A stretch of 64,000 bases of DNA from Candidatus Pacebacteria bacterium CG_4_9_14_0_2_um_filter_40_15 (GTDB lineage Bacteria; Patescibacteriota; Microgenomatia; UBA1400; PJMF01), in the NCBI GenBank assembly GCA_002788675.1, contig PFRS01000007.1, positions 270 to 64,269 on the forward strand. Direction: 5' to 3'. The notes beneath the pieces were generated by a model, which was given only the letters and a program-made list of their open reading frames with translations, did not search any database and was not told where the DNA came from. Position 1 is the first letter of the stretch. Every line of letters starts with the position of its first letter. Both the position numbers and the translations under genes were made by a program. Positions 1-13,020 of the stretch are shown in pieces.

Positions 1-35
1 GGTATTAATTATGTAAACATCAAATCGAAAAAAAT

Positions 36-938
36 ATGACAAGTTTGGATCAGACAGATGGTAGAGCCATAGGTGAAACAGGTGCCCTATTGGAAAAAAA
101 AACTGCCACAAATAAAATTTCTCAAGTTGAGTTTGATGCCCCAAAATATCAACCAAAAATTTTGAAGCTTTCTGAAATGGCATTGTCAATTTCAGATTCA
201 GACGGTGAGCATTATGTTAGTGAGGCGGGAAATAGTCATTATGGATTGCAAGAGATATTTGTTGTTGAGCAAACAACAGAAGGTGAAAAGATTGTATTAA
301 TCGAAGGTAAACGGGTTCAAAAAACTTTCCCTACTTGGGAGCTAACAGATACAGACCTTGTTAAATTGGGAAATTTTTTGGGATACATTCCAGTAACCAG
401 TTTTTTTGCCAAATGGGAACCAGGTTTATATAGTGATCGAGATTTTGTTTCGGAGTTAAGTCAACATGAAGCAGATGTAAAAAGAAGGCTTTTCTATGTT
501 GAAGTCTTAGTCAGAGCTGCTGGGACAAGTATTTTGCCTCTAGATTTTGATCAAGCAGTATGGGCACTAACTGCTCAACCAGAGAAAAAAAAGTACTCTC
601 CAGAGGATTTATTTGAATCATACACTGAAGTTTTATTGAGAAAAATTGAATTTTCCGATGAAGATAATCATGAAGCAGTGAAGATAATAAAAGAAAGTGT
701 GAAACGTTTAGAACTCTCAATTAAAAATGAAGAAGAGTTTATTGTTCAGTATTATTATGTATATGCAGCTTTGAAAATGATTGATTTCCAAGATATTGAA
801 CAAATAGTTGATTCATTAAGATATTTCCCATTTGTTGAAACTCTTATGAAGAAATTTGAAGATCAACCTGATGCTAGTTTTAGTGATAATTTGTTAGGGG
901 CTTTAAGTAGGTTCTCAATAGAATTCCGCAAAGATTAG
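36..938 (+). CDS. hypothetical protein (acidic, 300 aa)
   Basis: Long ORF with protein-like composition; no recognisable motif. Confidence 0.75.
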   Translation: MTSLDQTDGRAIGETGALLEKKTATNKISQVEFDAPKYQPKILKLSEMALSISDSDGEHYVSEAGNSHYGLQEIFVVEQTTEGEKIVLIEGKRVQKTFPTWELTDTDLVKLGNFLGYIPVTSFFAKWEPGLYSDRDFVSELSQHEADVKRRLFYVEVLVRAAGTSILPLDFDQAVWALTAQPEKKKYSPEDLFESYTEVLLRKIEFSDEDNHEAVKIIKESVKRLELSIKNEEEFIVQYYYVYAALKMIDFQDIEQIVDSLRYFPFVETLMKKFEDQPDASFSDNLLGALSRFSIEFRKD

Positions 939-1146
939 TTCTTTATTGGAAAGATTTTATGCATATACTTGATGAGCATAGTAGAGTGAAGCCAGGGGTG
1001 TTTATTTTGAAATAATTATTGGTATATGTCGGCCGTGTGGGAAGATGTTGGAACTTTTTTAAAGATTAATTCTAAAAAATCCGCAACAAATTTGAACAAT
1101 GTTTAGATATATAGTGTTTTATACATTTCATATATAATCTTTGAAT

Positions 1147-1815
1147 ATGCAAGAAAATCATCCTCAAACCCAAGATAATAATGAAATCAAGACTGTTCAA
1201 TCAGCTATGAATCTAACGTCAACAAATCCAATTCTATATATTCTTACAGGTTTTGGGGTTGCAGTAGTTGCATTTGGATTAGGATACATGGTCAGAGGAT
1301 ATTCAGTAGATGAATATATGGTTGCACAAGAAATCATAGCTCCAGAACCTATGACTCAAGAAGAAACTGTCAGTCCACTTGTAATGATGGAAGAACCAGC
1401 TGAAGCTAATTTACCATCAACAATTCTTGAAAGTGAAGATTTTGTGTATACAGATGAACAACTTGGTTTTTCACTAACATTGCCACCGAAATATTCAGTT
1501 ATTGGAGCAGATATTATGGGTAATGATGATGACAAAAGTGTTTCAATTATGTTTTATTTACCAGTAAATAATCTAGCTGGTGAATCATCAAGAGAAGACC
1601 TTTTTATAATAACTAGATTTGCACCTGGGACTGATATTTCTCAGCATGGCCCTGGAGGACAAAAAATAACTACTACTAAAGATGGAAATGACTATTATTT
1701 CTATGCAAATCGTGCTATTGGACTGCATCCAGAGCAACCAGAATACGAAGTCTACTTTTCTTTGGGGGGAGATCAAGCCTTTGATCTAGTTAAGGATGGA
1801 TTTAAATTACTTTAA
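1147..1815 (+). CDS. hypothetical single-pass membrane protein with extracytoplasmic domain
   Basis: One hydrophobic helix (ILYILTGFGVAVVAFGLGYMV), Pro/Glu linker, then YTDEQLGFSLTLP beta-rich (PsbP-like) start; ATG at 1147 preferred over TTG 1141. Confidence 0.75.
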   Translation: MQENHPQTQDNNEIKTVQSAMNLTSTNPILYILTGFGVAVVAFGLGYMVRGYSVDEYMVAQEIIAPEPMTQEETVSPLVMMEEPAEANLPSTILESEDFVYTDEQLGFSLTLPPKYSVIGADIMGNDDDKSVSIMFYLPVNNLAGESSREDLFIITRFAPGTDISQHGPGGQKITTTKDGNDYYFYANRAIGLHPEQPEYEVYFSLGGDQAFDLVKDGFKLL

Positions 1816-1824
1816 GAATTTTAT

Positions 1825-2073
1825 ATGAATAACCAGATTATTTCATATTGTTTTGTTTGTAAAAATCTAGTAGAAATTGACGCAAATAATTTATCATTTT
1901 CTCAAGATATTGAAAGTAAAACTTTAAATGCAGGAGCTTTTCCAGCTAAATTTGATGTTGATAAAGGCATTTATTGTATAGATATTGAAGAAGTAGAAAA
2001 TAAAAATGAGATACTAGAGGCAGTTAAATCTCTATTGCTGGGTTATGGTGTTGTTATTTTAGAAATTAACTAA
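1825..2073 (+). CDS. hypothetical small protein (N-terminal CxxC)
   Basis: 82-aa ORF 9 nt after previous stop, CFVC motif. Confidence 0.55.
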   Translation: MNNQIISYCFVCKNLVEIDANNLSFSQDIESKTLNAGAFPAKFDVDKGIYCIDIEEVENKNEILEAVKSLLLGYGVVILEIN

Positions 2074-2123
2074 ATAAATATTTTATTTTGCAGGTTTGTA
2101 TAAAAATGAATTTATATAGTACA

Positions 2124-2281
2124 TGTCGGGGAAACAGGACTCCTCGCTCGCTTCGCTCACTGCGGGATGCTCGTACTGTAGGAGGCTTACGCAATTTATA
2201 ACTCGCATAGCGACCCATAGGTTCAATCCTTTGCTTGCTCCAATACACAAAAAAACCCACCAAAAGGTGGATTTTTTCGTG
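2124..2281 (-). repeat. tRNA-Pro-associated ~158-bp mini-element with duplicated tRNA 3' end
   Basis: tgtcggggaaacaggactc at 2124-2142 equals 2282-2300; GTGAGCGAAGCGAG (rc 2147-2160) shared with the tRNA-Gly element. Confidence 0.8.
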
Positions 2282-2283
2282 TG

Positions 2284-2357
2284 TCGGGGAAACAGGACTC
2301 GAACCTGCGACCTCACGGTCCCAAACCGCGCACTCTAGCCATCTGAGCTATTCCCCG
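2284..2357 (-). tRNA. tRNA-Pro(TGG)
   Basis: CGGGGAA acceptor stem, anticodon loop TTTGGGA, T-arm GGTTCGAGTCC; CCA not encoded. Confidence 0.95.
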
Positions 2358-2426
2358 AATTGTTATGTAAAGAACAAGATCAAATTATACCGCACTAATG
2401 AGTATTATTCGAGATGGTCTTTTGTA

Positions 2427-2594
2427 CTATGACTCATGGTTGGTATCTTTTCGTAAGATATCTATCAGAGGTCGAGCAGGAATCAAGGCAAGTTTTTGCC
2501 AAAAGGCTTCTTGTTTTTTTTCTTTGTCTCTTCTCTCTTTCCAATCATCAAGATCTTTTTGGGAGATCTCTTGATGAGTTTCTTTTTGAGTCAT
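2427..2594 (-). CDS. hypothetical 55-aa charged protein between tRNA-Leu and tRNA-Pro
   Basis: ATG 4 nt after tRNA-Leu 3' end; MTQKETHQEISQKDLDDWKERRDKEKKQEAFW... fills the inter-tRNA gap. Confidence 0.5.
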   Translation of the reverse strand: MTQKETHQEISQKDLDDWKERRDKEKKQEAFWQKLALIPARPLIDILRKDTNHES

Positions 2595-2598
2595 TGTG

Positions 2599-2682
2599 TG
2601 CCGCGGGTGGGAATCGAACCCACACGATATTGCTATCACGAGATTTTAAGTCTCGCGCGTCTACCAATTCCGCCACCACGGC
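2599..2682 (-). tRNA. tRNA-Leu(TAA)
   Basis: GCCGTGG acceptor, anticodon loop CTTAAAA, long variable arm, GGTTCGATTCC T-arm. Confidence 0.95.
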
Positions 2683-2764
2683 TTGTTCACTTTAGAACAC
2701 TCACGATTATATCACCACAATTATCTTACTTGAAGTACAAGGAGAAGTTCTTTAGAATGAAACT

Positions 2765-5700
2765 ATGACTATGGATTCACGGCCTACGGCCGTACATACG
2801 ATCGAAAATACTCCGCCTCCTCCTCAAGAGCAGGAACATCCATTTATGGTTGGTGAACAACTTGGTGTTCTAAAGATTAATAATCCAGGTAGTGTTTTTG
2901 ATGGAATGGAGATTCCAATTCCAAGACAAAGACGAGAATTAAGTCGCAATGTGTCTGAAGCTTTGCTTTCTGAAATGCAGAATCCCGTACAACAACTCTT
3001 GCAGTTAGTGGAGAATGTAACCAATCAATCATTTGCACAAGGAGCTAAAACATATCAAGGTGAAAACAGAAAAATTCTCATACATAAGATACTTGAAAAC
3101 TTGTCTGATTCTCCTAAGTATAGAAAGCTACTCGAAAAATTTGCTAGTGGGAGCAGTGAATTTTCAAAAATAGTTATAAATGCGACTGTGTATATGTTAA
3201 GTAATACCAATTACTTGAAGGCAATTATTGGATTTGTTGTTGATGGTTGGGATAGTTCAAGAGCACCTCGAAGAATTCAAGACTTTGAGGATGCTATGCG
3301 CGAGGCAAGTTGGCAGGTGCAACAAGAACGCGATCCTGGTTTTTACCAGCAAACGCAAGCAGGACACTTTTCAGTTCAAACAGTACTTAATCCAGCAGTG
3401 GCATATGATCTTTTTTCATTTTATCAACTCACACAGCAGACAGAAACAGTGGGCTTAGTGCCCACTGAATCATTTGAATCTGATCATCCAAAGCAAATCC
3501 GACCAGGACAAGATGAAGAAGAGTATAAAAAAGAACAACTCGCACATTTAGAAAGATTGGAGGCTGAAAAGGCTGCTCGAGATGCTGCTGCTGCGCGTCC
3601 ACTTGCTCGTATAAAAAAGAAGCTGCAAGAGGCTGCTAATACATTTTCAGACCAGCAAAAGGAATTTCCTGAAGAGCCAGTGAGACAGGTTACATCTGAA
3701 GAATTTGAAGCAAAAGCTGCTGAGCGTCAACTTTTTGCAAATACCGAAAAACTTAATCGACTGGAAAAGGATTTTAGATCTGCAGTAGTGGGAGTAACCA
3801 TTGCAAATAAGATTGAGCTAATGCGAGAAGCAGCAGAGTTTCTCGAAACAGATTACGGTGAAGAAAAAGCAACACTCACAAGATATGAGCGACTTACAAA
3901 AAAATTAAAAGCAAAGTTATCTGGTAGACATTTTAGTCCTGAGTCAGCCGAAGCATTTTTACGATTACAAGAAGTGTATAAGTTTGATCCAAATAGTGAG
4001 GCTGTTAACCGATTACTTGATCAAGAATTTGGTTTAGATCAGGCTGAGATTACTGCATTAAATAGCACCAGAAATGGACGTAAAGATCTTGAAAAATTAA
4101 TCAGACGTGCTCGTGCAATAGTTACGCATGGTTTTACTAGAGATACCCAACATGGGATTGCTGAAGTTACTTTTGGTAAGGAACCAAGGCATTTTGTTAT
4201 ACTTGTTCATGGAGCACCTTACAAAATTGAATATTACAATAAGGATGGCTTTATAACTCAAGAATTGTTGATCAGAGCAGTACAAAATCTCGAATATACA
4301 CATGCTGATCAAAGTAAAGATCCAGAAGTACTCAAACAGAGACAAGTCATAGCTTCAATCTGGACTGAGTTAAGTTACAATCCTAAAAAAAATGAAATAG
4401 TAACTGATCCTCTTTTGTTAGACCAATTTATCAAAAAGTTTTTGAGGTCTGATTTAAAAAATACATCACAAGTTACACTGCAAATTGCTGATTCAATCAG
4501 GGCATTAATAAGTGCAGACTTTTCTGTCTCTGTGGGGGCAGATGAAGTTCCAGCTTTTGGAGCTGACGATCAAGCTGGGGAAATGCTCTCGTTGGTATTT
4601 GGAGGACAGCACATTGATATTTCAGATAATATTGGGGCGTTTTGTCAGCAATTTCTTGACTCTGATGAGATGAATAATAAACGAACACTATCAAACATTG
4701 CAAATTTTTTTGAAAAAGATAGTTGGGCGACACAATTACTTATAAAGATTAATTCACAATTTGATCATGGTTTGACTGATGGACGGGAAGCTCAAGAGAC
4801 TAATGCGGAATTATTACTGAGGTTATCTCAATATTTGGTAAGTGTGGGCAATGTTGCAGCAAGTAGAAAGATACTTCCAGAAGCACTACTCGCACAAAGT
4901 CTGAGTCTTGGTGTAATTGATGGTGAAATGGTGTTTGATGATGAAAAGGTTATTGCCGAGAATGTACACGAGTACAGTTATTCACTTCCGGACTTGCCCG
5001 AAGCCCTCGTTAACTCACCCAAAGCGTTAACTAAGGAGCTTGATAGAAGTGTCACTATTACTATGGAGAATGAGCTTAGAGATCGACTTGAAGCTATTGA
5101 TAGCATGAGTCTTAGGGAACTTTTTGACGGGGCAGGTACAATGGTTGATCGATTTGTAAATGTAACTGTTGATGTTCAGATGAATGCTATTAGAGAACCT
5201 GCATGGCAAGAACACTTGCGCTTGAATCCAGATATTCCATCCAAGAGTCCCAGGAAAATACAAGTTATCAAAGATACATTTTATATAGATTTGGAGACTG
5301 GTCTTCGAGACACAGTTAAAATTTTTCTAAATGGGGATCATGAGCTCATGAAGGAAGTACAAGAAAAATTACAGCTCAAAAAATATGATTTCTCAGCTGC
5401 GGCTCGGCTGTACGGGGTTGCTGATGTTTCAAAAATTTCTGCTGTTGAATATAGTCGATTTATGGCAGATCGTACTACATTGGCAGGAGAAAGCGATACA
5501 TTTAACATCCTTGCTCAATATGAACAAATTAATACTGTTGCACGAAAAGTAAAACGTAGGCTAACTGCAATTCAAAAACAAAAAAAAGAGGCTGAACATA
5601 CAAGAGATACTATTAGTGATGTTCTTGATATCAAGACTGTTTATGATGAGACTTACGCACGACTTAATTCAACTGAAGAGCAAGATTTATTACAGTTGTT

Positions 5701-6898
5701 AGATGAAATGAATGCGGCCCTTAAGCAAATTAATTTGGTGCTGACTCGATGTCTTTATGATAAAGAATTGTTTGCTACCGATGCCTCTGGGTCAGTGAGA
5801 GAAAGTGATCCGATTATAGCTCAAGTCCACAACCTACAATTAAACAGAATTAGTTCGGTCACCGCAATTCATTATGCTCAACTTATGGCGGACATGATGA
5901 ACATGATGAGTGATGATATGAGGCCTGCATTGCGTAGATTACCCACATCACGTAACATTGCTGAAATTCCTACGAGTAGGCTCGATTTTCACACTATGAC
6001 TGGGTATGCAGAAACAATGTTAAGTATGCAAAGCTTTGCAGAGATTTGGGCTGACACAAATAAAGATAGAACGGATGGGAAAGCACAAGTGCTTGAAGCA
6101 TTTAAGGATATAATTCAAGATTTTGTTGTAAATTATAGTATGCAGTTTCAAATAGGTGTTGATCAGGCACGAAAGCAAGTCAGTGATACGTCAGTATTAT
6201 CTGCTGGTACTAACAGATTTACTCAGTGGTTACTGGAAGTTTCTTTGCAATACACGGGTCTCACCGGGGTACTGGCTCAACAGCGCACGGGCAATATGAT
6301 TTCAGTGGTAGATTCAAATCCCGGTGTTGCTGGAGGGTATAGTTTACTGAGTCTGAGTGAAGGAGAGATGAGTGAAGCCGAGCATCTTACTGCGGTTTTA
6401 AATAGCAGCCATGGTCAAGATTCATTTCATACAGCTGGATCAAAAAATGTTGGTACTGCTATGGGAGTTACTCGAGTACACGATGGGGAAAATTCTCATT
6501 ATGCCTTTAAAGGTCGTAAGGCTGTCACTGATCAGCATCTAGATCAAATTGCCATGGCCATGCTGGGAGTAGAACGAAATGTAGCACGAGAATTAGTTGA
6601 AGGTATAAAACCTGGGTATTACTTTAATCAGCTGACTGTGCCGCAGCGCCGAGAGGCTCTCCATACAGCTAAGAGTGAGCTGGTTGAACAAACTAAATCT
6701 ATGTATTACTGGTACTTCTTTATTAACGTTATTACTAAAATGGATATGAATCAGGTGGGAACAAGGTATGATGAATGGGTGGTATCGGAAAGTTCACTCT
6801 CATTTATTAAATATGTTATGGAACAGGAACTGCCAAAGTATAACTTGAGTGAAGAGGCTATGGATTTCTATCAAAATGGTCCTAGATTGAACGCCTAG
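2765..6898 (+). CDS. large protein, putative divergent choline/carnitine O-acyltransferase family member
   Basis: 1377-aa ORF; collinear resemblance to PF00755 motifs incl. RHFVILVHGAPYKIEYY, FDHGLTDG (HxxxDG), SDPIIAQ, GVDQ. CDS is certain; family call is by eye. Confidence 0.6.
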   Translation: MTMDSRPTAVHTIENTPPPPQEQEHPFMVGEQLGVLKINNPGSVFDGMEIPIPRQRRELSRNVSEALLSEMQNPVQQLLQLVENVTNQSFAQGAKTYQGENRKILIHKILENLSDSPKYRKLLEKFASGSSEFSKIVINATVYMLSNTNYLKAIIGFVVDGWDSSRAPRRIQDFEDAMREASWQVQQERDPGFYQQTQAGHFSVQTVLNPAVAYDLFSFYQLTQQTETVGLVPTESFESDHPKQIRPGQDEEEYKKEQLAHLERLEAEKAARDAAAARPLARIKKKLQEAANTFSDQQKEFPEEPVRQVTSEEFEAKAAERQLFANTEKLNRLEKDFRSAVVGVTIANKIELMREAAEFLETDYGEEKATLTRYERLTKKLKAKLSGRHFSPESAEAFLRLQEVYKFDPNSEAVNRLLDQEFGLDQAEITALNSTRNGRKDLEKLIRRARAIVTHGFTRDTQHGIAEVTFGKEPRHFVILVHGAPYKIEYYNKDGFITQELLIRAVQNLEYTHADQSKDPEVLKQRQVIASIWTELSYNPKKNEIVTDPLLLDQFIKKFLRSDLKNTSQVTLQIADSIRALISADFSVSVGADEVPAFGADDQAGEMLSLVFGGQHIDISDNIGAFCQQFLDSDEMNNKRTLSNIANFFEKDSWATQLLIKINSQFDHGLTDGREAQETNAELLLRLSQYLVSVGNVAASRKILPEALLAQSLSLGVIDGEMVFDDEKVIAENVHEYSYSLPDLPEALVNSPKALTKELDRSVTITMENELRDRLEAIDSMSLRELFDGAGTMVDRFVNVTVDVQMNAIREPAWQEHLRLNPDIPSKSPRKIQVIKDTFYIDLETGLRDTVKIFLNGDHELMKEVQEKLQLKKYDFSAAARLYGVADVSKISAVEYSRFMADRTTLAGESDTFNILAQYEQINTVARKVKRRLTAIQKQKKEAEHTRDTISDVLDIKTVYDETYARLNSTEEQDLLQLLDEMNAALKQINLVLTRCLYDKELFATDASGSVRESDPIIAQVHNLQLNRISSVTAIHYAQLMADMMNMMSDDMRPALRRLPTSRNIAEIPTSRLDFHTMTGYAETMLSMQSFAEIWADTNKDRTDGKAQVLEAFKDIIQDFVVNYSMQFQIGVDQARKQVSDTSVLSAGTNRFTQWLLEVSLQYTGLTGVLAQQRTGNMISVVDSNPGVAGGYSLLSLSEGEMSEAEHLTAVLNSSHGQDSFHTAGSKNVGTAMGVTRVHDGENSHYAFKGRKAVTDQHLDQIAMAMLGVERNVARELVEGIKPGYYFNQLTVPQRREALHTAKSELVEQTKSMYYWYFFINVITKMDMNQVGTRYDEWVVSESSLSFIKYVMEQELPKYNLSEEAMDFYQNGPRLNA

Positions 6899-6927
6899 TT
6901 GCAGGTATAATTCGGGGTGTTAAGAGC

Positions 6928-6999
6928 GCGGGTATAGTACAACGGCTAGTATGACTGCCTTCCAAGCAGTAGATGGCGGTTCGATTCCGCTTACCCGCT
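6928..6999 (+). tRNA. tRNA-Gly(TCC)
   Basis: GCGGGTA/TACCCGC acceptor stem, anticodon loop CTTCCAA, GGTTCGATTCC; TATAAT at 6906-6911 upstream. Confidence 0.95.
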
Positions 7000-7200
7000 C
7001 AGAAATGAAAATAGGCCGTCAGGCCTCTTTTTATTTCTGAATGGTGTAGATACGGAACTAATCTAGCGAGATGAATATCGAGCTAAGTTCTGACGGAGAG
7101 TGCGATAGCACCCGCCTAATGCATGTGAGCGAAGCGAGTCGTAGATTCCGCTTACCCGCTCAGAAAATAAAAAAGGCCGTGAGGCCTGTTTTTATTTTAG
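7000..7200 (+). repeat. tRNA-Gly-associated ~161-bp mini-element with duplicated tRNA 3' end and terminator
   Basis: gattccgcttacccgctcagaaa at 6983-7005 repeated at 7144-7166, each followed by an AGGCC-GT(C/G)A-GGCCT hairpin; GTGAGCGAAGCGAG at 7125-7138. Confidence 0.8.
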
Positions 7201-7914
7201 AAGTTCTAACACTTTTTCTTCTGGCAGCTCAATGTATTTTTCACCATCTAAGTCACCAATATCAAATGGTCCCATTTTTGTGCGAACAAGTTCAATAGTG
7301 TCGTATCCTACTCTCTCAGTCATACGGCGAATTTGTCTGTTTCTGCCTTCTGTAATGGTTATTTCAATCCAGGTTTGGTTTTCTTCATGTGACAAAACAG
7401 TAACCTCTGCTGGTTTTGTGTAGCCATCTTTGAGTTTGACGCCTCTTCTGAGGTGATCAAGCGCTAAATTGGTGGGTTTACTACTGAGAAGAACTTCATA
7501 GGTTTTTGCTATTTCGTATCTTGGGTGAGTAAGTGTGTGAGCTAGCTCTCCATTATTGGTAACTAGCATAAGGCCTTCACTCTCTTGGTCAAGTCGTCCA
7601 ACTGGATAAACGCGTTCAGTTATTTTTGGTATGAGTTCAAGAACAGTTTTTCTGCCAACTTCATCTGAAGTAGTTGAAATATATCCCACTGGTTTATTTA
7701 TCAGAAAATAACGATGTTTTTGAGGTGCTGAGATAGGTTTTCCGTCGATTGAAACTTTGTCTTTGTGAGGGTTTACGCGTTGACCAATTTTTGCAACAGA
7801 ACCATTTACTGTTACGACTCCAGTTTCAATAAGAGCCTCGGATTTTCTTCGTGAAGCAATGCCAGCTCTAGCAAGGAAGAGTTGCAGCTTGATTGTTGAT
7901 GTATTGCTCGTCAT
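7192..7914 (-). CDS. rluB: rRNA pseudouridine synthase, RsuA/RluB family
   Basis: N-terminal S4 domain (LARAGIASRRKSE), catalytic VGRLD, EGRNRQIRRM. Confidence 0.9.
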   Translation of the reverse strand: MTSNTSTIKLQLFLARAGIASRRKSEALIETGVVTVNGSVAKIGQRVNPHKDKVSIDGKPISAPQKHRYFLINKPVGYISTTSDEVGRKTVLELIPKITERVYPVGRLDQESEGLMLVTNNGELAHTLTHPRYEIAKTYEVLLSSKPTNLALDHLRRGVKLKDGYTKPAEVTVLSHEENQTWIEITITEGRNRQIRRMTERVGYDTIELVRTKMGPFDIGDLDGEKYIELPEEKVLELLK

Positions 7915-7930
7915 AATATGTTCCTGTTGT

Positions 7931-8608
7931 ATGAAAAAAACACTTATTATCTCTGATCTTCACTTAAATAATAGCTTCGATAGAGAATTATCGCATTATA
8001 TCGCGAATTTAGTCAGATCTGTTGACCAAGTTATAATCAATGGGGACTTTTGGGATCACTATATTTGTAGTTTTGATGAGTTTGTTGCATCTGAATGGAA
8101 TCAGCTCTTTCCTATTCTTAGAGAAAAAAATGCCATATTTATATATGGTAATCATGATAAGGCTGCCTTTTCAGATGAACGTGTAACCTTCTTTAGTGCA
8201 AAGCAAGTTGTTGAATACACACTTCACTCGGGTGATAAACGTTTCATTATTGAGCATGGAAATCGAATCGCACCTGAAATGGATGATAAACATCCAACAC
8301 TTGCAAATCTATTTGATAGATTTTATCCTCGATTTTATTTTTACATGATGAAGGATCTGTGGGCAACACGATTTATTCATAGAAAATTTATGTATCCAAA
8401 GCAAGAAAAACTTGATGTCATCTTACAGAGATATTTCTCTCGACTAGATGATGCCTCTGTAGATGGCTACATTTGTGGTCACTCACATATATTTGCTGCA
8501 TCACCGACTTTTAAATATTATAATTCTGGTTACTTTTTTGCAGGTGAAGCGCACTATCTTATTATTGAAGATGGTACTATCTCAAGACATTCTGAGTTTT
8601 ATTGGTAG
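7931..8608 (+). CDS. calcineurin-like metallophosphoesterase
   Basis: ISDLH, NGDFWD, GNHD, EHG, CGHSH motifs; start at MKKTL avoids overlap with rluB. Confidence 0.9.
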   Translation: MKKTLIISDLHLNNSFDRELSHYIANLVRSVDQVIINGDFWDHYICSFDEFVASEWNQLFPILREKNAIFIYGNHDKAAFSDERVTFFSAKQVVEYTLHSGDKRFIIEHGNRIAPEMDDKHPTLANLFDRFYPRFYFYMMKDLWATRFIHRKFMYPKQEKLDVILQRYFSRLDDASVDGYICGHSHIFAASPTFKYYNSGYFFAGEAHYLIIEDGTISRHSEFYW

Positions 8609-8617
8609 AATACTTTC

Positions 8618-9688
8618 ATGAAAACATGGCAAAAGCTAGCTGTCTCAAATGCAGCAATCAGACCTTTCAAGATACGAGAAACGGTACTGGATACTATTAG
8701 ATCCTTTTTTAAAAAAGAGGGTTTTTTAGAAGTTGAAACTCCCCTTCTCTGTGAAAACCCAGGGACTGAGCCATATCTTGAGGTTTTTAAAACGACACTC
8801 AAAGCACAAAACTTTTCAGATAGACCTGGTTTTTTAGTTACGAGTCCTGAACTTTTTATGAAAAAATTGTTGGCTGCTGGAGTTGGTAGCTGTTTTCAAA
8901 TTTGTAAAAGTTTTAGAAACGAAGAAGGTGTGAGTGCCTTTCATAATCATGAATTCACTATTTTAGAGTGGTACCATGTTGATGCAGATTATACTGACGT
9001 GATGACTGATTGTGAGAATTTGTTGCTACGAATTCTTAGAACAGTTTCAGGGGATGAGACTGCCATTATTTTAACATATCAAGGCAAGGAATATGATCTT
9101 TCCCCAGGATGGGAGAGAATTTCTGTTGCTGAAGCATTCAAAAAATATGCAAACGTGGACATTGATGAACTTCTCACTGAAGAGTCATTACTCAAAATTG
9201 GACAGGAAAAAGGATATTCAGTTACAGAAACAACTGACTGGGAGGAAATCTATAACCAAATTTTTCTTAATGAAATTGAACCAAATTTAGGTAAAGCAAA
9301 GCCAACTATTATTTATGAGTATCCTGCTTCTCAAGCAGCACTTTCAAAACGCAAAGAATCTGATCCACGATTTGCTGAGCGCTTTGAGTTCTATATAGGA
9401 GGATTAGAGTTGGGAAATGCATTTTCAGAATTAACCGACTCTGATGAACAACGAGCTAGAATGCAGGAAGACCTTGAGATGCGAAAAAAAATGGATAAGT
9501 ATTCATACACCTTGGATGAAGACTTTTTTACAGCACTCAAAATGGGACTACCACGTACCGGTGGTATTGCTGTTGGTGTTGATAGATTAGTGATGCTTTT
9601 TGCAGATGTTGCATCTGTGCGTGAAACGCTTTTCTTTCCTATTAATGAAGTCTTTGATTTTTCTGTGACTGAATCTGATAAAAAATAA
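8618..9688 (+). CDS. epmA: EF-P lysine aminoacylase EpmA (GenX/PoxA)
   Basis: LysRS catalytic domain without anticodon domain; TSPELFMKKLL, FRNEE, HNHEFTILEWY, ERFE, ELGNAFSEL, GVDRL; adjacent to efp. Confidence 0.92.
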   Translation: MKTWQKLAVSNAAIRPFKIRETVLDTIRSFFKKEGFLEVETPLLCENPGTEPYLEVFKTTLKAQNFSDRPGFLVTSPELFMKKLLAAGVGSCFQICKSFRNEEGVSAFHNHEFTILEWYHVDADYTDVMTDCENLLLRILRTVSGDETAIILTYQGKEYDLSPGWERISVAEAFKKYANVDIDELLTEESLLKIGQEKGYSVTETTDWEEIYNQIFLNEIEPNLGKAKPTIIYEYPASQAALSKRKESDPRFAERFEFYIGGLELGNAFSELTDSDEQRARMQEDLEMRKKMDKYSYTLDEDFFTALKMGLPRTGGIAVGVDRLVMLFADVASVRETLFFPINEVFDFSVTESDKK

Positions 9689-9711
9689 AACCAATGATAT
9701 AATACTACTCT

Positions 9712-10278
9712 ATGTCTATCGTCAAAGCCGGAAACATTCGAAAAGGGATGTACCTACTCCATAAAGATCAACCTTACTATGTCACTCATACTGATTTTAT
9801 GAGTCCAGGAAAAGGCTCAGCATTCATGCGAGTAAAGTATCGTAATGTGATTACTGGTAATACTGAAGAATTTACCTATAAGTCAAGTGAATCTGTTGAA
9901 GAAGCTGAAATTCAAAGTACTCAAATGCAGTTCTTGTATGTTGATGGCAGTGACTCAGTTTTTATGGATAACAATACGTATGAGCAAGTTGAAATTCCAA
10001 CTGTTATGCTTGAAGATAAGCAGGGACTTTTAACACCTGATATTCAAGTATATGTTATGTTTTACAATGGAAAAGCACTCGGTGTTTCACTCCCTCCAAA
10101 AGTTCGCCTTAAAGTTACCTATGCTGAAGAAGCTACAGCTGGAAATACACAAGGTCAAGCTCGAAAAATGGTTACACTTGAAACTGGACTAGAAATTTCA
10201 GCTCCAATCTTTGTAAAAGAAGGTGACACACTTGTTATCGACACCGATACAGTAAGTTACGTTTCTCGAGCTAACTAA
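9712..10278 (+). CDS. efp: elongation factor P
   Basis: SPGKGSAF tip motif, MQFLY, LETG..P.FVKEGD. Confidence 0.95.
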   Translation: MSIVKAGNIRKGMYLLHKDQPYYVTHTDFMSPGKGSAFMRVKYRNVITGNTEEFTYKSSESVEEAEIQSTQMQFLYVDGSDSVFMDNNTYEQVEIPTVMLEDKQGLLTPDIQVYVMFYNGKALGVSLPPKVRLKVTYAEEATAGNTQGQARKMVTLETGLEISAPIFVKEGDTLVIDTDTVSYVSRAN

Positions 10279-10284
10279 TTTTTC

Positions 10285-11250
10285 TTAGAAAAGTCCCAGA
10301 GTTTTTACAACAAAGACAATAAAGAAGGCTATGAGTGCAACGCCAATTTTCTTTGGTACCTGCTTGCCTTTATACATGAATAGCATCAGGCAAAAGAAAA
10401 TAGTTATTATCAATAATGAATAGAGCTCCCAGGCTGAAATCGGTCCTTGATCGCCAAAGAGCAAAATAATTCCAGGAAATAGTGCTAGGTTAAACACGTT
10501 GCTTCCAACCAATGTTCCAATTACAACTTTATTTTCATGTTTGTGTGAAGCAATAACAGAGAGAATAAGTTCAGGTAATGAAGTCGAAATGGCTGTGAGA
10601 GTTAATCCAAGCACAGATGTTGCGTATCCTAAGATATGAGCAAGTCCATTTACAGCATTCACTGTAACCATACCGCCAACGGTTAAGCCTGCGGTAGTGG
10701 TAAGTAGGGTAATGATATAAAAGAGACGTGGGTGTTTTCTATTTTTTTTGTATAGATTCTGAAGTGCATCTAATAAGCGCTTATCTTCATGAAGTCTCCC
10801 CTGTTTTGCGGAAAAATATTGATACAAAAGTGAAATGCTTATTGTGAAGAAGAAGATTATCACTTTATTTTGGAGTGATATAGATGAAAGAAGTAAAATC
10901 ACAAACAAAACAGTGATTGCCAAGAGCAAAACAGCATTCTTCTGTGATTTATTATTGCCAAGCTTAACGCCTCCAAAAAGTGTCGCTACTCCAAAGATAA
11001 GAGTAATATTTGCAATACTGCTACCAATCAAGTTAGCCATAGCTAAGTCTGCATCATGTTGATAGAGAGATACACCAGTAACGGTGAGCTCTGGCAAGTT
11101 TGTGCCGAGCGCAACAATTACAAGGGAAATAAACAATGGTGAAAATCGCCATTTTGCTGCTAGTTCTTGAATTACCTTAAGAAATGCTTGTGAAGATACA
11201 AGCATAATACTTAAACCAATGGCAAATGAGAACAATGTGGGCAGTAACAC
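10285..11250 (-). CDS. Ca2+/Na+ antiporter (YrbG/CaCA family)
   Basis: Two alpha repeats GTNLPEL and STSLPEL, GSNVFN, ~10 TM helices. Confidence 0.9.
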   Translation of the reverse strand: MLLPTLFSFAIGLSIMLVSSQAFLKVIQELAAKWRFSPLFISLVIVALGTNLPELTVTGVSLYQHDADLAMANLIGSSIANITLIFGVATLFGGVKLGNNKSQKNAVLLLAITVLFVILLLSSISLQNKVIIFFFTISISLLYQYFSAKQGRLHEDKRLLDALQNLYKKNRKHPRLFYIITLLTTTAGLTVGGMVTVNAVNGLAHILGYATSVLGLTLTAISTSLPELILSVIASHKHENKVVIGTLVGSNVFNLALFPGIILLFGDQGPISAWELYSLLIITIFFCLMLFMYKGKQVPKKIGVALIAFFIVFVVKTLGLF

Positions 11251-11301
11251 ATGTTCAGTATAGCAACCTGAAGAGGTATTTGTCTACCGAGTGGAATAGA
11301 G

Positions 11302-11330
11302 TTGACATTTTATAAAAAATATCCTATAAT
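11302..11330 (+). promoter_or_regulatory. consensus sigma70 promoter
   Basis: TTGACA(11302)-17 nt-TATAAT(11325). Confidence 0.75.
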
Positions 11331-11381
11331 TATTAATTAGCTTTTTAAAATGTTACTTTATTTTAGCATCAGCCTTTTTGG

Positions 11382-11732
11382 TTGATGAATCATGGAGAGA
11401 CGATAATGGTCATCTTGGAATATGTATTTTATTTTGTTGTACTAGGTTGGAAGTCGATTACAGAGACGGCTGATTATTTAATTCAAGGTTGCATTGGTAT
11501 TGTGGTTGGTATATGTGTACTAGCATCGCCAGCAGCAACACCATTTGTTGTAGTAACGGGGGTATTTGCGTATGGTGTTGGCATGCTTGCTTTCAGCTAT
11601 ACGAAGAAACTCGCCTTAAATTCTGATCCGGATCCCATAATGTATTATATAATTTGTGGATTTGCTACAGGTTACCTTTGGGGATACATTTTCTACTGGG
11701 TTGCATCATTGGCAACCACAGTTCCTAGCTAA
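11382..11732 (+). CDS. hypothetical membrane protein
   Basis: Hydrophobic 116-aa ORF; upstream TTGACA-17-TATAAT promoter; downstream terminator. Confidence 0.65.
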   Translation: MMNHGETIMVILEYVFYFVVLGWKSITETADYLIQGCIGIVVGICVLASPAATPFVVVTGVFAYGVGMLAFSYTKKLALNSDPDPIMYYIICGFATGYLWGYIFYWVASLATTVPS

Positions 11733-11753
11733 TTTATTTAACATTTTTTTGCT

Positions 11754-11786
11754 AACTGCTCGGTCATGTACCGGGCAGTTTTTTTT
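11754..11786 (+). terminator. intrinsic terminator
   Basis: aactgctcggt-catgt-accgggcagtt followed by T run. Confidence 0.75.
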
Positions 11787-13020
11787 ATAAAATTTCATTT
11801 AGCTCACGCTGAGGCATGCGAATTTTTTTAGGTGTCACAAAGAGTAATCCAAGAGAAATTATTGCTAAGCTAATTCCCAAGAGTGAAAAAGCACCTTTAA
11901 TGCCAATAATTGATGCTAAGAATGTAGCAACAATGGGCCCAATCACATAGGCAAAACTGCTAGATGAACCTTGTAGACCAATCAATTCATTACCATCATC
12001 TTTCAGTCGACTTATGTAATCTTCAAAGGTGGCTTTCATTTCTGGTACAGCAATTCCCATAAAGAATGAAACCAGTAGTGTGACAACTAATATTACAACT
12101 ACCGAATGAAGGAGCACATAAGTACCTAAAGCAACACCGGCCAAAGCGCTACAAATGAGTGCTGTTTTCTTTTTACCAATGGGAAGGGTTAATTTTGTTA
12201 GGAATAGGCCTACAAAGGTAGCTGGTAGAATGTAGGCTGTAAGCAAAAAGCTACCCAAACTGCTTTCCTGCGATAATGACTGCATTAGAAGGGCCCCAAT
12301 TGTCCAAAAGCTGGCGTCAACACTAGAAACAATAAGCTGTAGTGCTAGTAGTGGCCAAACGCTTTTAAAGAGAATTTTCCATACTTTGAACTCCGAAATC
12401 CAAGACTTGTGAAGTTCTTTTTTTTGATTTCTATGTGAGTGTGGATTAATAAATACAATTCTAAAAAATAGAGTAAGAAAAAGTGCGATTCCCAAAAAAA
12501 ATAACACGGCAGTGAACCCAAGCTCAAAACTACTTGAAAGTAGATGTACCGCAAGTAACGGCCCAAGTGCATATGCTCCAGAATGAAATGCCTGGAGTAT
12601 TCCCCATGCTTTGGTATGTTCTGACAAATGGATGTAACTGTTCACAAACTGAAATGATGAAAACATGTTGAGTTCAAAATACACCCCCCATATTGCCATA
12701 GCCAGAAAGAGTGTCATTATATGCTGTGGAAAAAATAGAAATGTGGTTGGAAACAGTATGGCCGAAAGTAACGTAACTTTTAAGAAAAAAAAGTGAGATT
12801 TATTGGTAAATATTTTTGGAAATACTATGTCACAAATAATGCCGACAACAGATGAAAATGCAAAAATAAGCCCCATTATAAACGTGCTACTTACCTGTGC
12901 CTCAATGAAGATCGGACTGATGTAAGACATGATTGCATCGGCAAAAGAAATCAAGAAAGATATCACTGCAAAGGATAGCAATACAAGCCACTGTGGTTTT
13001 TTACCTCGAATGAAAAACAT
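11785..13020 (-). CDS. MFS transporter
   Basis: ~12 TM helices in two halves; likely start MFFIRG (ORF track extends to 13059). Confidence 0.85.
   Translation of the reverse strand: MFFIRGKKPQWLVLLSFAVISFLISFADAIMSYISPIFIEAQVSSTFIMGLIFAFSSVVGIICDIVFPKIFTNKSHFFFLKVTLLSAILFPTTFLFFPQHIMTLFLAMAIWGVYFELNMFSSFQFVNSYIHLSEHTKAWGILQAFHSGAYALGPLLAVHLLSSSFELGFTAVLFFLGIALFLTLFFRIVFINPHSHRNQKKELHKSWISEFKVWKILFKSVWPLLALQLIVSSVDASFWTIGALLMQSLSQESSLGSFLLTAYILPATFVGLFLTKLTLPIGKKKTALICSALAGVALGTYVLLHSVVVILVVTLLVSFFMGIAVPEMKATFEDYISRLKDDGNELIGLQGSSSSFAYVIGPIVATFLASIIGIKGAFSLLGISLAIISLGLLFVTPKKIRMPQRELNEIL

Follow-up and report, generated by a model that had tools for sequence, protein, structure and literature searches.

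Behind two tRNA genes, tRNA-Pro(tgg) and tRNA-Gly(tcc), of Candidatus Pacebacteria bacterium CG_4_9_14_0_2_um_filter_40_15, we found short units without genes, each of which ends in an exact second copy of the 3' end of its host tRNA. Both lie in a stretch of 64,000 nucleotides (contig PFRS01000007.1 of assembly GCA_002788675.1, positions 270 to 64,269 of the forward strand), here called the window. These units are real, selected for structure, polymorphic, and widespread. We tentatively regard them as folded single-stranded DNA (ssDNA) elements that may be recombined in trans at the T-arm of tRNA genes, most likely by a tyrosine recombinase and a single strand exchange as at integron attC sites. 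A first-pass annotation of the window had proposed a non-autonomous, tRNA-targeted family mobilized in trans. What holds is a gene-less family at the T-loop of many tRNAs (and of one transfer-messenger RNA [tmRNA]), with a patchy distribution, host-tracking arms, and ssDNA-type hairpins; mobilization in trans is the part that we infer. The source genome (G000) comprises 1.22 Mb in 10 contigs, and G001 and G003 are relatives that were compared with it.

Anatomy and confirmation of the two units

ARAGORN identified six tRNAs in the window. The intact tRNA-Pro(tgg) gene lies at 2283 to 2357 on the minus strand. Read along that strand, its unit opens with an A-tract, a GC hairpin, and a T-tract that together resemble a terminator (2245 to 2282), and continues with tRNA-Pro sequence in inverted, degenerate form, taken from the T-arm and the acceptor 3' strand; this copy spans the T-loop and ends in GAACC (2220 to 2244). 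The type-B core follows (2143 to 2219), with an internal T-loop mimic (2211 to 2216), a first hairpin, and a second hairpin that holds the 14-mer GTGAGCGAAGCGAG (2147 to 2160). An exact 19-nucleotide (nt) direct copy of the tRNA-Pro 3' end closes the unit (2124 to 2142).

On the plus strand, the intact tRNA-Gly(tcc) gene (6928 to 7000, ARAGORN) is followed by a terminator-like hairpin (7001 to 7038) and by a degenerate inverted copy of its 3' end (7039 to 7063), which, as read from the sequence, pairs perfectly with tRNA positions 59 to 63. An additional linker hairpin (7064 to 7085) occupies the interval between this arm and the type-A core (7087 to 7143). The core includes a GTTC T-loop mimic (7087 to 7090), the covarying hairpin H1 (7095 to 7116), and hairpin H2 (7122 to 7143), whose minimal-loop form is the same 14-mer (7125 to 7138). 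At the end of the unit, 23 nt repeat the tRNA-Gly 3' end exactly and in direct orientation, beginning at tRNA position 57 (7144 to 7166). A second, diverged homologue of the Gly terminator on the plus strand (7162 to 7198) may be an older resident or the remnant of an earlier unit.

The architecture given for both units in the first-pass annotation, with periods of 158 bp (Pro) and 161 bp (Gly), was found in all its parts, and the 14-mer matched exactly in both (0.14 matches expected even at two mismatches). No such copy was seen at the remaining four tRNAs, again as described. The start claimed for both copies, GGTTC|GA in the T-loop, applies to Gly and is partly coincidental for Pro, where orthologous units start at A58. 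DNA folding gave z scores of -8.7 for the Gly region and -2.5 for the Pro region. Contigs from other runs bridged the Pro unit (X13 record 1, X23 record 17, and X24 record 24) and the Gly unit (X13 record 8 and X17 record 16) with no other letters, so the suspicion of an assembly artifact can be laid aside for both; the comparison covered the contigs of 4 of 24 runs, none of them flagged as a potential source of the assembly, which possibly belong to one campaign.

Size and distribution of the family

In an unselected search, a unit of at most 300 bp stood behind 12 of the 41 scorable tRNAs of G000. When truncated units and those behind cassettes were counted by eye, 19 of 44 tRNA loci carried units. 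The units are 79 to 221 bp long, none contains an open reading frame (ORF), and in G000 they fall into at least six core types, the Gly and Pro units of the window being of different types (A and B). Their targets include the tRNAs for Ala, Arg, Asn, Asp, Cys, Gln, Glu, Gly, Ile, Leu, Lys, Met, Pro, Ser, Trp, and Val and one tmRNA, about 17 tRNA kinds in all. The units punctuate the gene-cassette arrays behind the tRNAs of these small genomes.

The type-A pattern matched eight times in G000 and was present in 19 of 140 family genomes and 11 of 57 genera, with 0 matches for a reversed-pattern control. The 140-genome tallies include one unpublished genome (G105), on which no claim rests. Among 28 records sharing cores with G000, 15 were titled as Patescibacteria-type groups, 12 as 'Pseudomonadales', and 1 as TM6, the titles being unchecked. 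A metagenome scan for core A returned 116 stretches, mostly chance matches, and 11 of 13 inspected were unit-like. Homologues of the type-B core occurred at Pro, Leu, Lys, Val, and Trp in G000, G001, and G003. Type C gave 11 matches in 10 loci, each preceding a tRNA 3' copy (24 stretches scanned). In viral contigs, the patterns for cores A, B, and C matched 2, 2, and 7 stretches, none of them at a tRNA.

The 14-mer had been taken as the mark of the family, a role that it does not fill: there are six or more core types, and the 14-mer is not kept even in the same-genus orthologous Pro units of G001 and G003. It is the shortest-loop version of the type-A hairpin, whose loop ranges from 3 to about 25 nt. 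Genome-wide, it occurs twice exactly, three times at up to one mismatch (the third at a tRNA-Glu 3' copy), and nine times at up to two. Together with a T-loop tail, it was found in genome contigs at no fewer than 123 loci, with a tRNA in 10 and a duplication in 7 among the matches listed, and in viral contigs at 121 loci, none with a unit. No attC-like context was seen at the motif-bearing loci. As a separate observation, GAGCGAAGCGAG caps a hairpin at G000:C1:168860-168920, past a leader-peptide/terminator-like region with no tRNA near; this hairpin precedes a probable threonyl-tRNA synthetase gene.

Filled, empty, and tandem alleles

Comparison of orthologous tRNA loci, a check suggested at the outset, revealed filled, empty, and tandem alleles. 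Of 30 tRNA-Pro loci, 3 were dropped (two at contig ends and one without a Pro call); among the 27 scorable genomes, 5 have the locus filled, the cores being of four kinds and one locus holding a tandem array. A 5-kb stretch behind tRNA-Pro of G003 has five units interleaved with gene cassettes. The Gly(tcc) locus was empty in both G001 and G003, and tandem units of different type follow Gly(gcc) and Ser(tga) in G000.

Structure of core and arm

Conservation of structure was evident in 31 type-A cores, in which 94% of cells were paired (80% when shuffled) and the stems held 58 double changes (18 when shuffled). In the first helix, both partners change in all four pairs; the last helix has invariant pairs that the search pattern imposes. 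In 28 unselected units (2.5 kb), the sense strand held 13 C-GNA-G triloops and the antisense strand held 0; behind empty tRNAs (12.5 kb), the numbers were 10 and 4. GNA triloops outnumbered GNRA tetraloops by 13 to 6. GNA triloops and tandem sheared GA pairs are especially stable in DNA. No evidence of a link to replication origins was seen, though no search was aimed at one. A hammerhead-like CTGACGA in core C was rejected on inspection, with no GAAA after it and no match in the Rfam scans, which were made on sequences other than core C.

Pairing between the inverted arm and the tRNA end comprised 583 Watson-Crick, 122 G-T, and 74 A-C pairs; at positions 59 to 64 alone, arm pairing did not resolve the strand (9 versus 4.2 and 11 versus 7.1). 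Type-C arms paired perfectly with positions 59 to 63 in 11 of 17 cases, versus 3.5 by permutation. Arm likeness was 0.66 for the same tRNA in different genomes and 0.58 to 0.60 otherwise, and core likeness was 0.74 within a genome and 0.63 to 0.64 between genomes, with tRNA labels that were automatic, three visibly wrong, and 4 of 38 units unlabelled. By these values, the inverted arm tracks the host tRNA and the core tracks the genome; kin are not independent in the counts of structure, strand, arm, and core given here. Two tRNA-Gln units (L400 and L401) have a common arm and different core loops, and their terminator loops are in opposite orientation to each other.

Rules at the junctions

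In 41 of 46 units, identity with the host began at position 57 or 58, and in the other 5 it began at 60 to 61 (some loci were counted in two sets); the duplications are 16 to 23 nt long, in two registers. In type A, the start tracks base 59: a pyrimidine goes with position 57 (10 of 10) and a purine with position 58 (17 of 20). The 5' end compensates, in that the internal GTTC has an extra purine after it exactly when the copy begins at 58 (15 plus 11 cases, 26 of 26). Because the registers compensate at both ends, the core lies inside a second copy of the T-loop, placed to one side of base 57 or to the other.

An uninterrupted T-loop copy was found in none of the 28 unselected Patescibacteria units and in 1 of 48 units overall. 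The exception (L378) is a 135-bp unit at a tRNA-Arg on an unrelated, GC-rich metagenome contig. In tyrosine-integrase islands, the identity block covers the 7-nt T-loop spacer, and the recombinase cuts the antisense strand at 60/61. In contrast, the identity block of the units starts at 57 to 61, and the duplication is without most of the 7-nt T-loop, which argues against the classical tyrosine-integrase crossover to which the T-loop position had been linked. Copy and host differed at 17 of 84 sites at positions 58 to 60 and at 10 of 336 at 61 to 72, and fixed triplets foreign to the host close the Leu(tag) and Met units. Both observations are suggestive of host-derived sequence that may start only at C61.

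Comparison with known systems

The layout itself is already known from the RtT repeats of Escherichia coli. In E. coli K-12, the same layout occurs four times at tyrV/tyrT and once at proK, and all five match RF00391 (101 to 138 bits). RF00391 had no match in positions 1 to 12000 of the window (E ≤ 5) or in 10 non-E. coli loci (E ≤ 0.5), so the Patescibacteria units resemble RtT repeats and are not members. The likeness to the 178-bp tyrT/tyrV repeats and to proK covers the order of parts, a duplication from A58, an inverted copy ending over GAACC, an internal GGTTCG, and GAGC-loop-GCGA hairpins; the proK unit contains GAGCGAAGCGAG. RtT differs in being annotated as a small RNA and not as a mobile element, whereas six or more core types and about 17 tRNA kinds are seen here. 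The E. coli proK locus carries 0, 1, or 2 units by strain (2683 of 5426 genomes cover the full query). In a preprint (10.1101/2024.07.17.603846), the tyrT/rttR region is enriched in exonuclease-resistant DNA, and such signals are ascribed to RNA/DNA hybrids. RtT is not mentioned in the version consulted of the CoCoNuT preprint. No paper on such elements was found in a literature search that left subscription papers mostly outside.

Islands at tRNA and tmRNA genes, as treated by Islander, likewise combine an intact tRNA with a displaced 3' fragment, form tandem arrays, and also hit tmRNA. The units differ in their small size, in having no integrase gene and no intact T-loop in the duplicate, and in their inverted arm and structured core. 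Islander rejects candidates that are below 2 kb or integrase-less (PMC4383910, in part). With attC sites the units share imperfect hairpins that vary in sequence and are conserved in structure, short junction homology, and a GAA loop (PMC2727003, in part); unlike attC sites, they have no RYYYAAC/GTTRRRY boxes or attI, their ends consist of tRNA sequence, they target the tRNA T-arm, and no intI is linked to them in G000. Casposons also have a T-loop-dependent target at the tRNA 3' end and a duplication of about 15 bp, of which just 5 bp fall within the tRNA (PMC5137440, in part). Casposons have terminal inverted repeats and Cas1, whereas the units show neither, as judged by inspection of the ends and by a Cas1 (PF01867) search of five unit-rich genomes, which found 0.

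REP/REPIN-RAYT elements and IS200/IS605 derivatives are small ssDNA-hairpin elements moved in trans. They have no target duplication and a fixed tetranucleotide, in contrast to the long, two-register duplication of the units. The IS110/IS1111 group differs in its cognate recombinase, since IS110 (PF02371) was found in 0 of the five unit-rich genomes. The TRIP repeats of E. coli were rejected as kin: TRIP1 copies lie beside protein genes and are not tRNA-linked (PMC10888264, in part).

A possible mechanism and the evidence against it

A unit consists of a tRNA-specific arm (3' end, terminator, and inverted copy) and an exchangeable hairpin core set in a second T-loop copy. Under the mechanism that we tentatively favor, the strand would fold so that the inverted copy pairs across the T-loop/T-stem junction; this would recreate a duplex resembling the T-arm, from which the core loops out next to base 57. 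A tyrosine recombinase supplied in trans, most likely of the integron or Xer type, could then join the unit to a chromosomal tRNA between 57 and 61, by which the tRNA would be restored and the old 3' end displaced downstream. Repeated events would generate tandem arrays, and cores could be swapped between arms inside one genome. The attC sites are structure-defined, with a 3-nt conserved triplet and one strand exchange (PMC2727003, in part), and linear ssDNA substrates have a precedent (PMC12614218, in part).

In a broader form, held with equal reserve, the units from Patescibacteria to E. coli could be self-guided minimal ssDNA elements, in which the target is set by base-pairing of the arm to the T-arm, an interchangeable core recruits a host or mobile enzyme, and the tRNA stays whole; RtT would then be resident mobile DNA rather than, in the first place, an RNA gene. 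That the units may be guided ssDNA elements of a new class is a credible view. If mobile, the units would be among the smallest site-specific elements known, and their target would be one motif common to all tRNAs, with the gene undamaged. That target is apparently set by DNA base-pairing, which would suggest an insertion chemistry that can be retargeted. The copies at tyrT and proK of E. coli K-12 make an old unexplained repeat directly testable.

Several results weigh against recombination in trans by a tyrosine recombinase. Profiles for tyrosine and serine recombinases, Y1, Cas1, IS110, and reverse transcriptase revealed no mobilizing enzyme. Two Xer-like recombinases are present in 139 of 140 family genomes and, being near-universal, are uninformative as a partner. 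A 270-amino-acid (aa) IntI-like recombinase was not found in G000, and it occurred in 3 of 19 genomes with core A versus 5 of 121 others (P = 0.08); only 2 of the 29 tRNA-adjoining IntI-like loci described below carry a unit. The polarity is also contrary to expectation, with DNA-type loops on the sense strand and the expected cut at 60/61 on the antisense strand. No replication-strand bias was seen (9 of 19 units versus 11 of 25), and neither a circle nor an empty-allele joint was found in the contigs of four runs. Host specificity of the arms is modest overall (score of 21.9 versus 19.3; 35 of 43). Finally, the excess of differences at positions 58 to 60 may mirror the natural variability of T-loop bases, and mismatches were capped at 61 to 72 only.

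Candidate enzymes

G000 encodes two Xer-like tyrosine recombinases (PF00589), three large serine recombinases (PF07508), and one IS200-like Y1. Both PF00589 matches, the Y1 match, and two of the three PF07508 matches lie on contigs other than that of the window; the place of the third PF07508 match is not listed. At G000:C1:52045-54142 and in several family genomes, one Xer-like gene and a tRNA gene are about 1 kb apart.

The IntI-like recombinase, which lacks the integron insert, scored 210 to 222 bits against TIGR02249 (cut-off, 265) in 8 of 140 genomes. It heads integron-like arrays that adjoin tRNAs in 29 of 75 scorable loci (best 80 of 216). The gene (loci L592-L599 and L611-L690) is widespread in Patescibacteria and has an attI-like site and attC-like cassettes upstream; in the 29 loci, it is convergent to the tRNA. 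A 5.7-kb integron-bearing stretch with this recombinase at Leu ends in no more than a truncated core.

Other candidates were tried and rejected. Large serine recombinases, found in 102 of 140 genomes, agree with the cassettes at tRNA 3' ends and do not fit the units. Y1 co-occurs with core A (7 of 19 versus 17 of 121, P = 0.02, kin not being independent), and the 20 Y1 loci inspected are ordinary IS200-like elements with unrelated ends of their own. None of the GIY-YIG genes of G000 lies at a unit.

Alternative explanations

A somewhat unlikely alternative is guide-paired insertion with a long target duplication. Here the terminator, inverted arm, and core would move, the wobble-rich arm would anneal to the T-arm of the target, and positions 57/58/61 to 74 would be doubled through staggered cutting or primed resynthesis. 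Since only these three parts would move, retargeting would need no captured tRNA piece. The exact copies at each host, the G/T-rich and modestly specific arms, and the near-identical cores at Gln, Cys, and Asp of one genome agree with it, as does a duplication length that varies and at times takes in the terminator (43 further nt at L190), and a T-loop-dependent 15-bp duplication by a casposase exists in nature (PMC5137440, in part). However, the relatedness of same-tRNA arms extends across genera (0.66 versus 0.58 to 0.60), the two Gly terminators of the window are diverged and not fresh, and no terminal inverted repeats were seen. The enzymes are wanting as well: Cas1 and IS110 were not found in any of the five unit-rich genomes, and reverse transcriptase, with two matches in G000, is missing from two of the five.

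It is unlikely that no dedicated enzyme is involved, with gain by homologous recombination or annealing (for example, of incoming DNA) and gain or loss by repeat slippage. A long hairpin would hide the first 3'-end copy, so that the folded strand shows a continuous 'empty allele'. The inverted arm covers exactly this first copy, the E. coli proK locus varies from 0 to 2 units with an empty allele that keeps the arm, and no partner enzyme correlates with the units, all of which favor this route; it leaves unexplained the invariant core bases and mismatches, the two-register rule, and the movement of cores between tRNA types.

The readings above all treat the unit as spreading DNA; the remaining two do not. 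More doubtful still is the view that larger integrase islands collapsed and left the units as relics (attL-attR with arms). An intact tRNA with a displaced fragment is the signature of an island (PMC4383910, in part), and core remnants close both a 30-kb Glu island and the 5.7-kb integron-bearing Leu stretch. Yet the islands and cassettes found here cross over at the tRNA 3' end and have a different arm, no unit contains a gene, viral contigs hold no tRNA-linked core, and compensatory changes show continuing selection. Least probable is a host-selected RNA or terminator module that yields, by processing of read-through transcripts, a small RNA resembling RtT whose end is tRNA-like: the layout is that of E. 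coli RtT, annotated as a product of the tyrT transcript, and the structure lies on the transcribed strand, but the loops are mostly GNA triloops, a DNA-stable motif (13 versus 6 GNRA tetraloops), the units are absent from most relatives and orthologous loci, and no Rfam match reached gathering level in the sequences scanned.

Neighboring cassettes and islands

Between the two units of the window, a 1377-aa ORF (2765 to 6898) had no Pfam match; a distant homologue with the same start is present in G003.

Gene cassettes at tRNA 3' ends were seen at G000:C1:144413-149620 (Trp), G000:C10:153516-156600 (Ser gct), and L036 (Pro of G003). Their closing arm is fixed, with GGTTC 28 nt from the tRNA end versus 23 in the tRNA, exactly 5 nt farther, and the same arm also ends a serine-recombinase island at tRNA-Glu. 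Large serine recombinases recognize a zinc-domain motif that is shifted by 5 bp between attP and attB. The matching 5-nt shift and the common arm at the Glu island suggest that large serine recombinases move the tRNA 3'-end cassettes.

The 30-kb tRNA-Glu island (G000:C8:128781-159210) carries a serine recombinase, type IV secretion genes, and a TatD/QueC/KAP block, and its diversity-generating retroelement is split by an IS1595-like gene (names by inspection). It ends in a mini-unit with a one-mismatch 14-mer.

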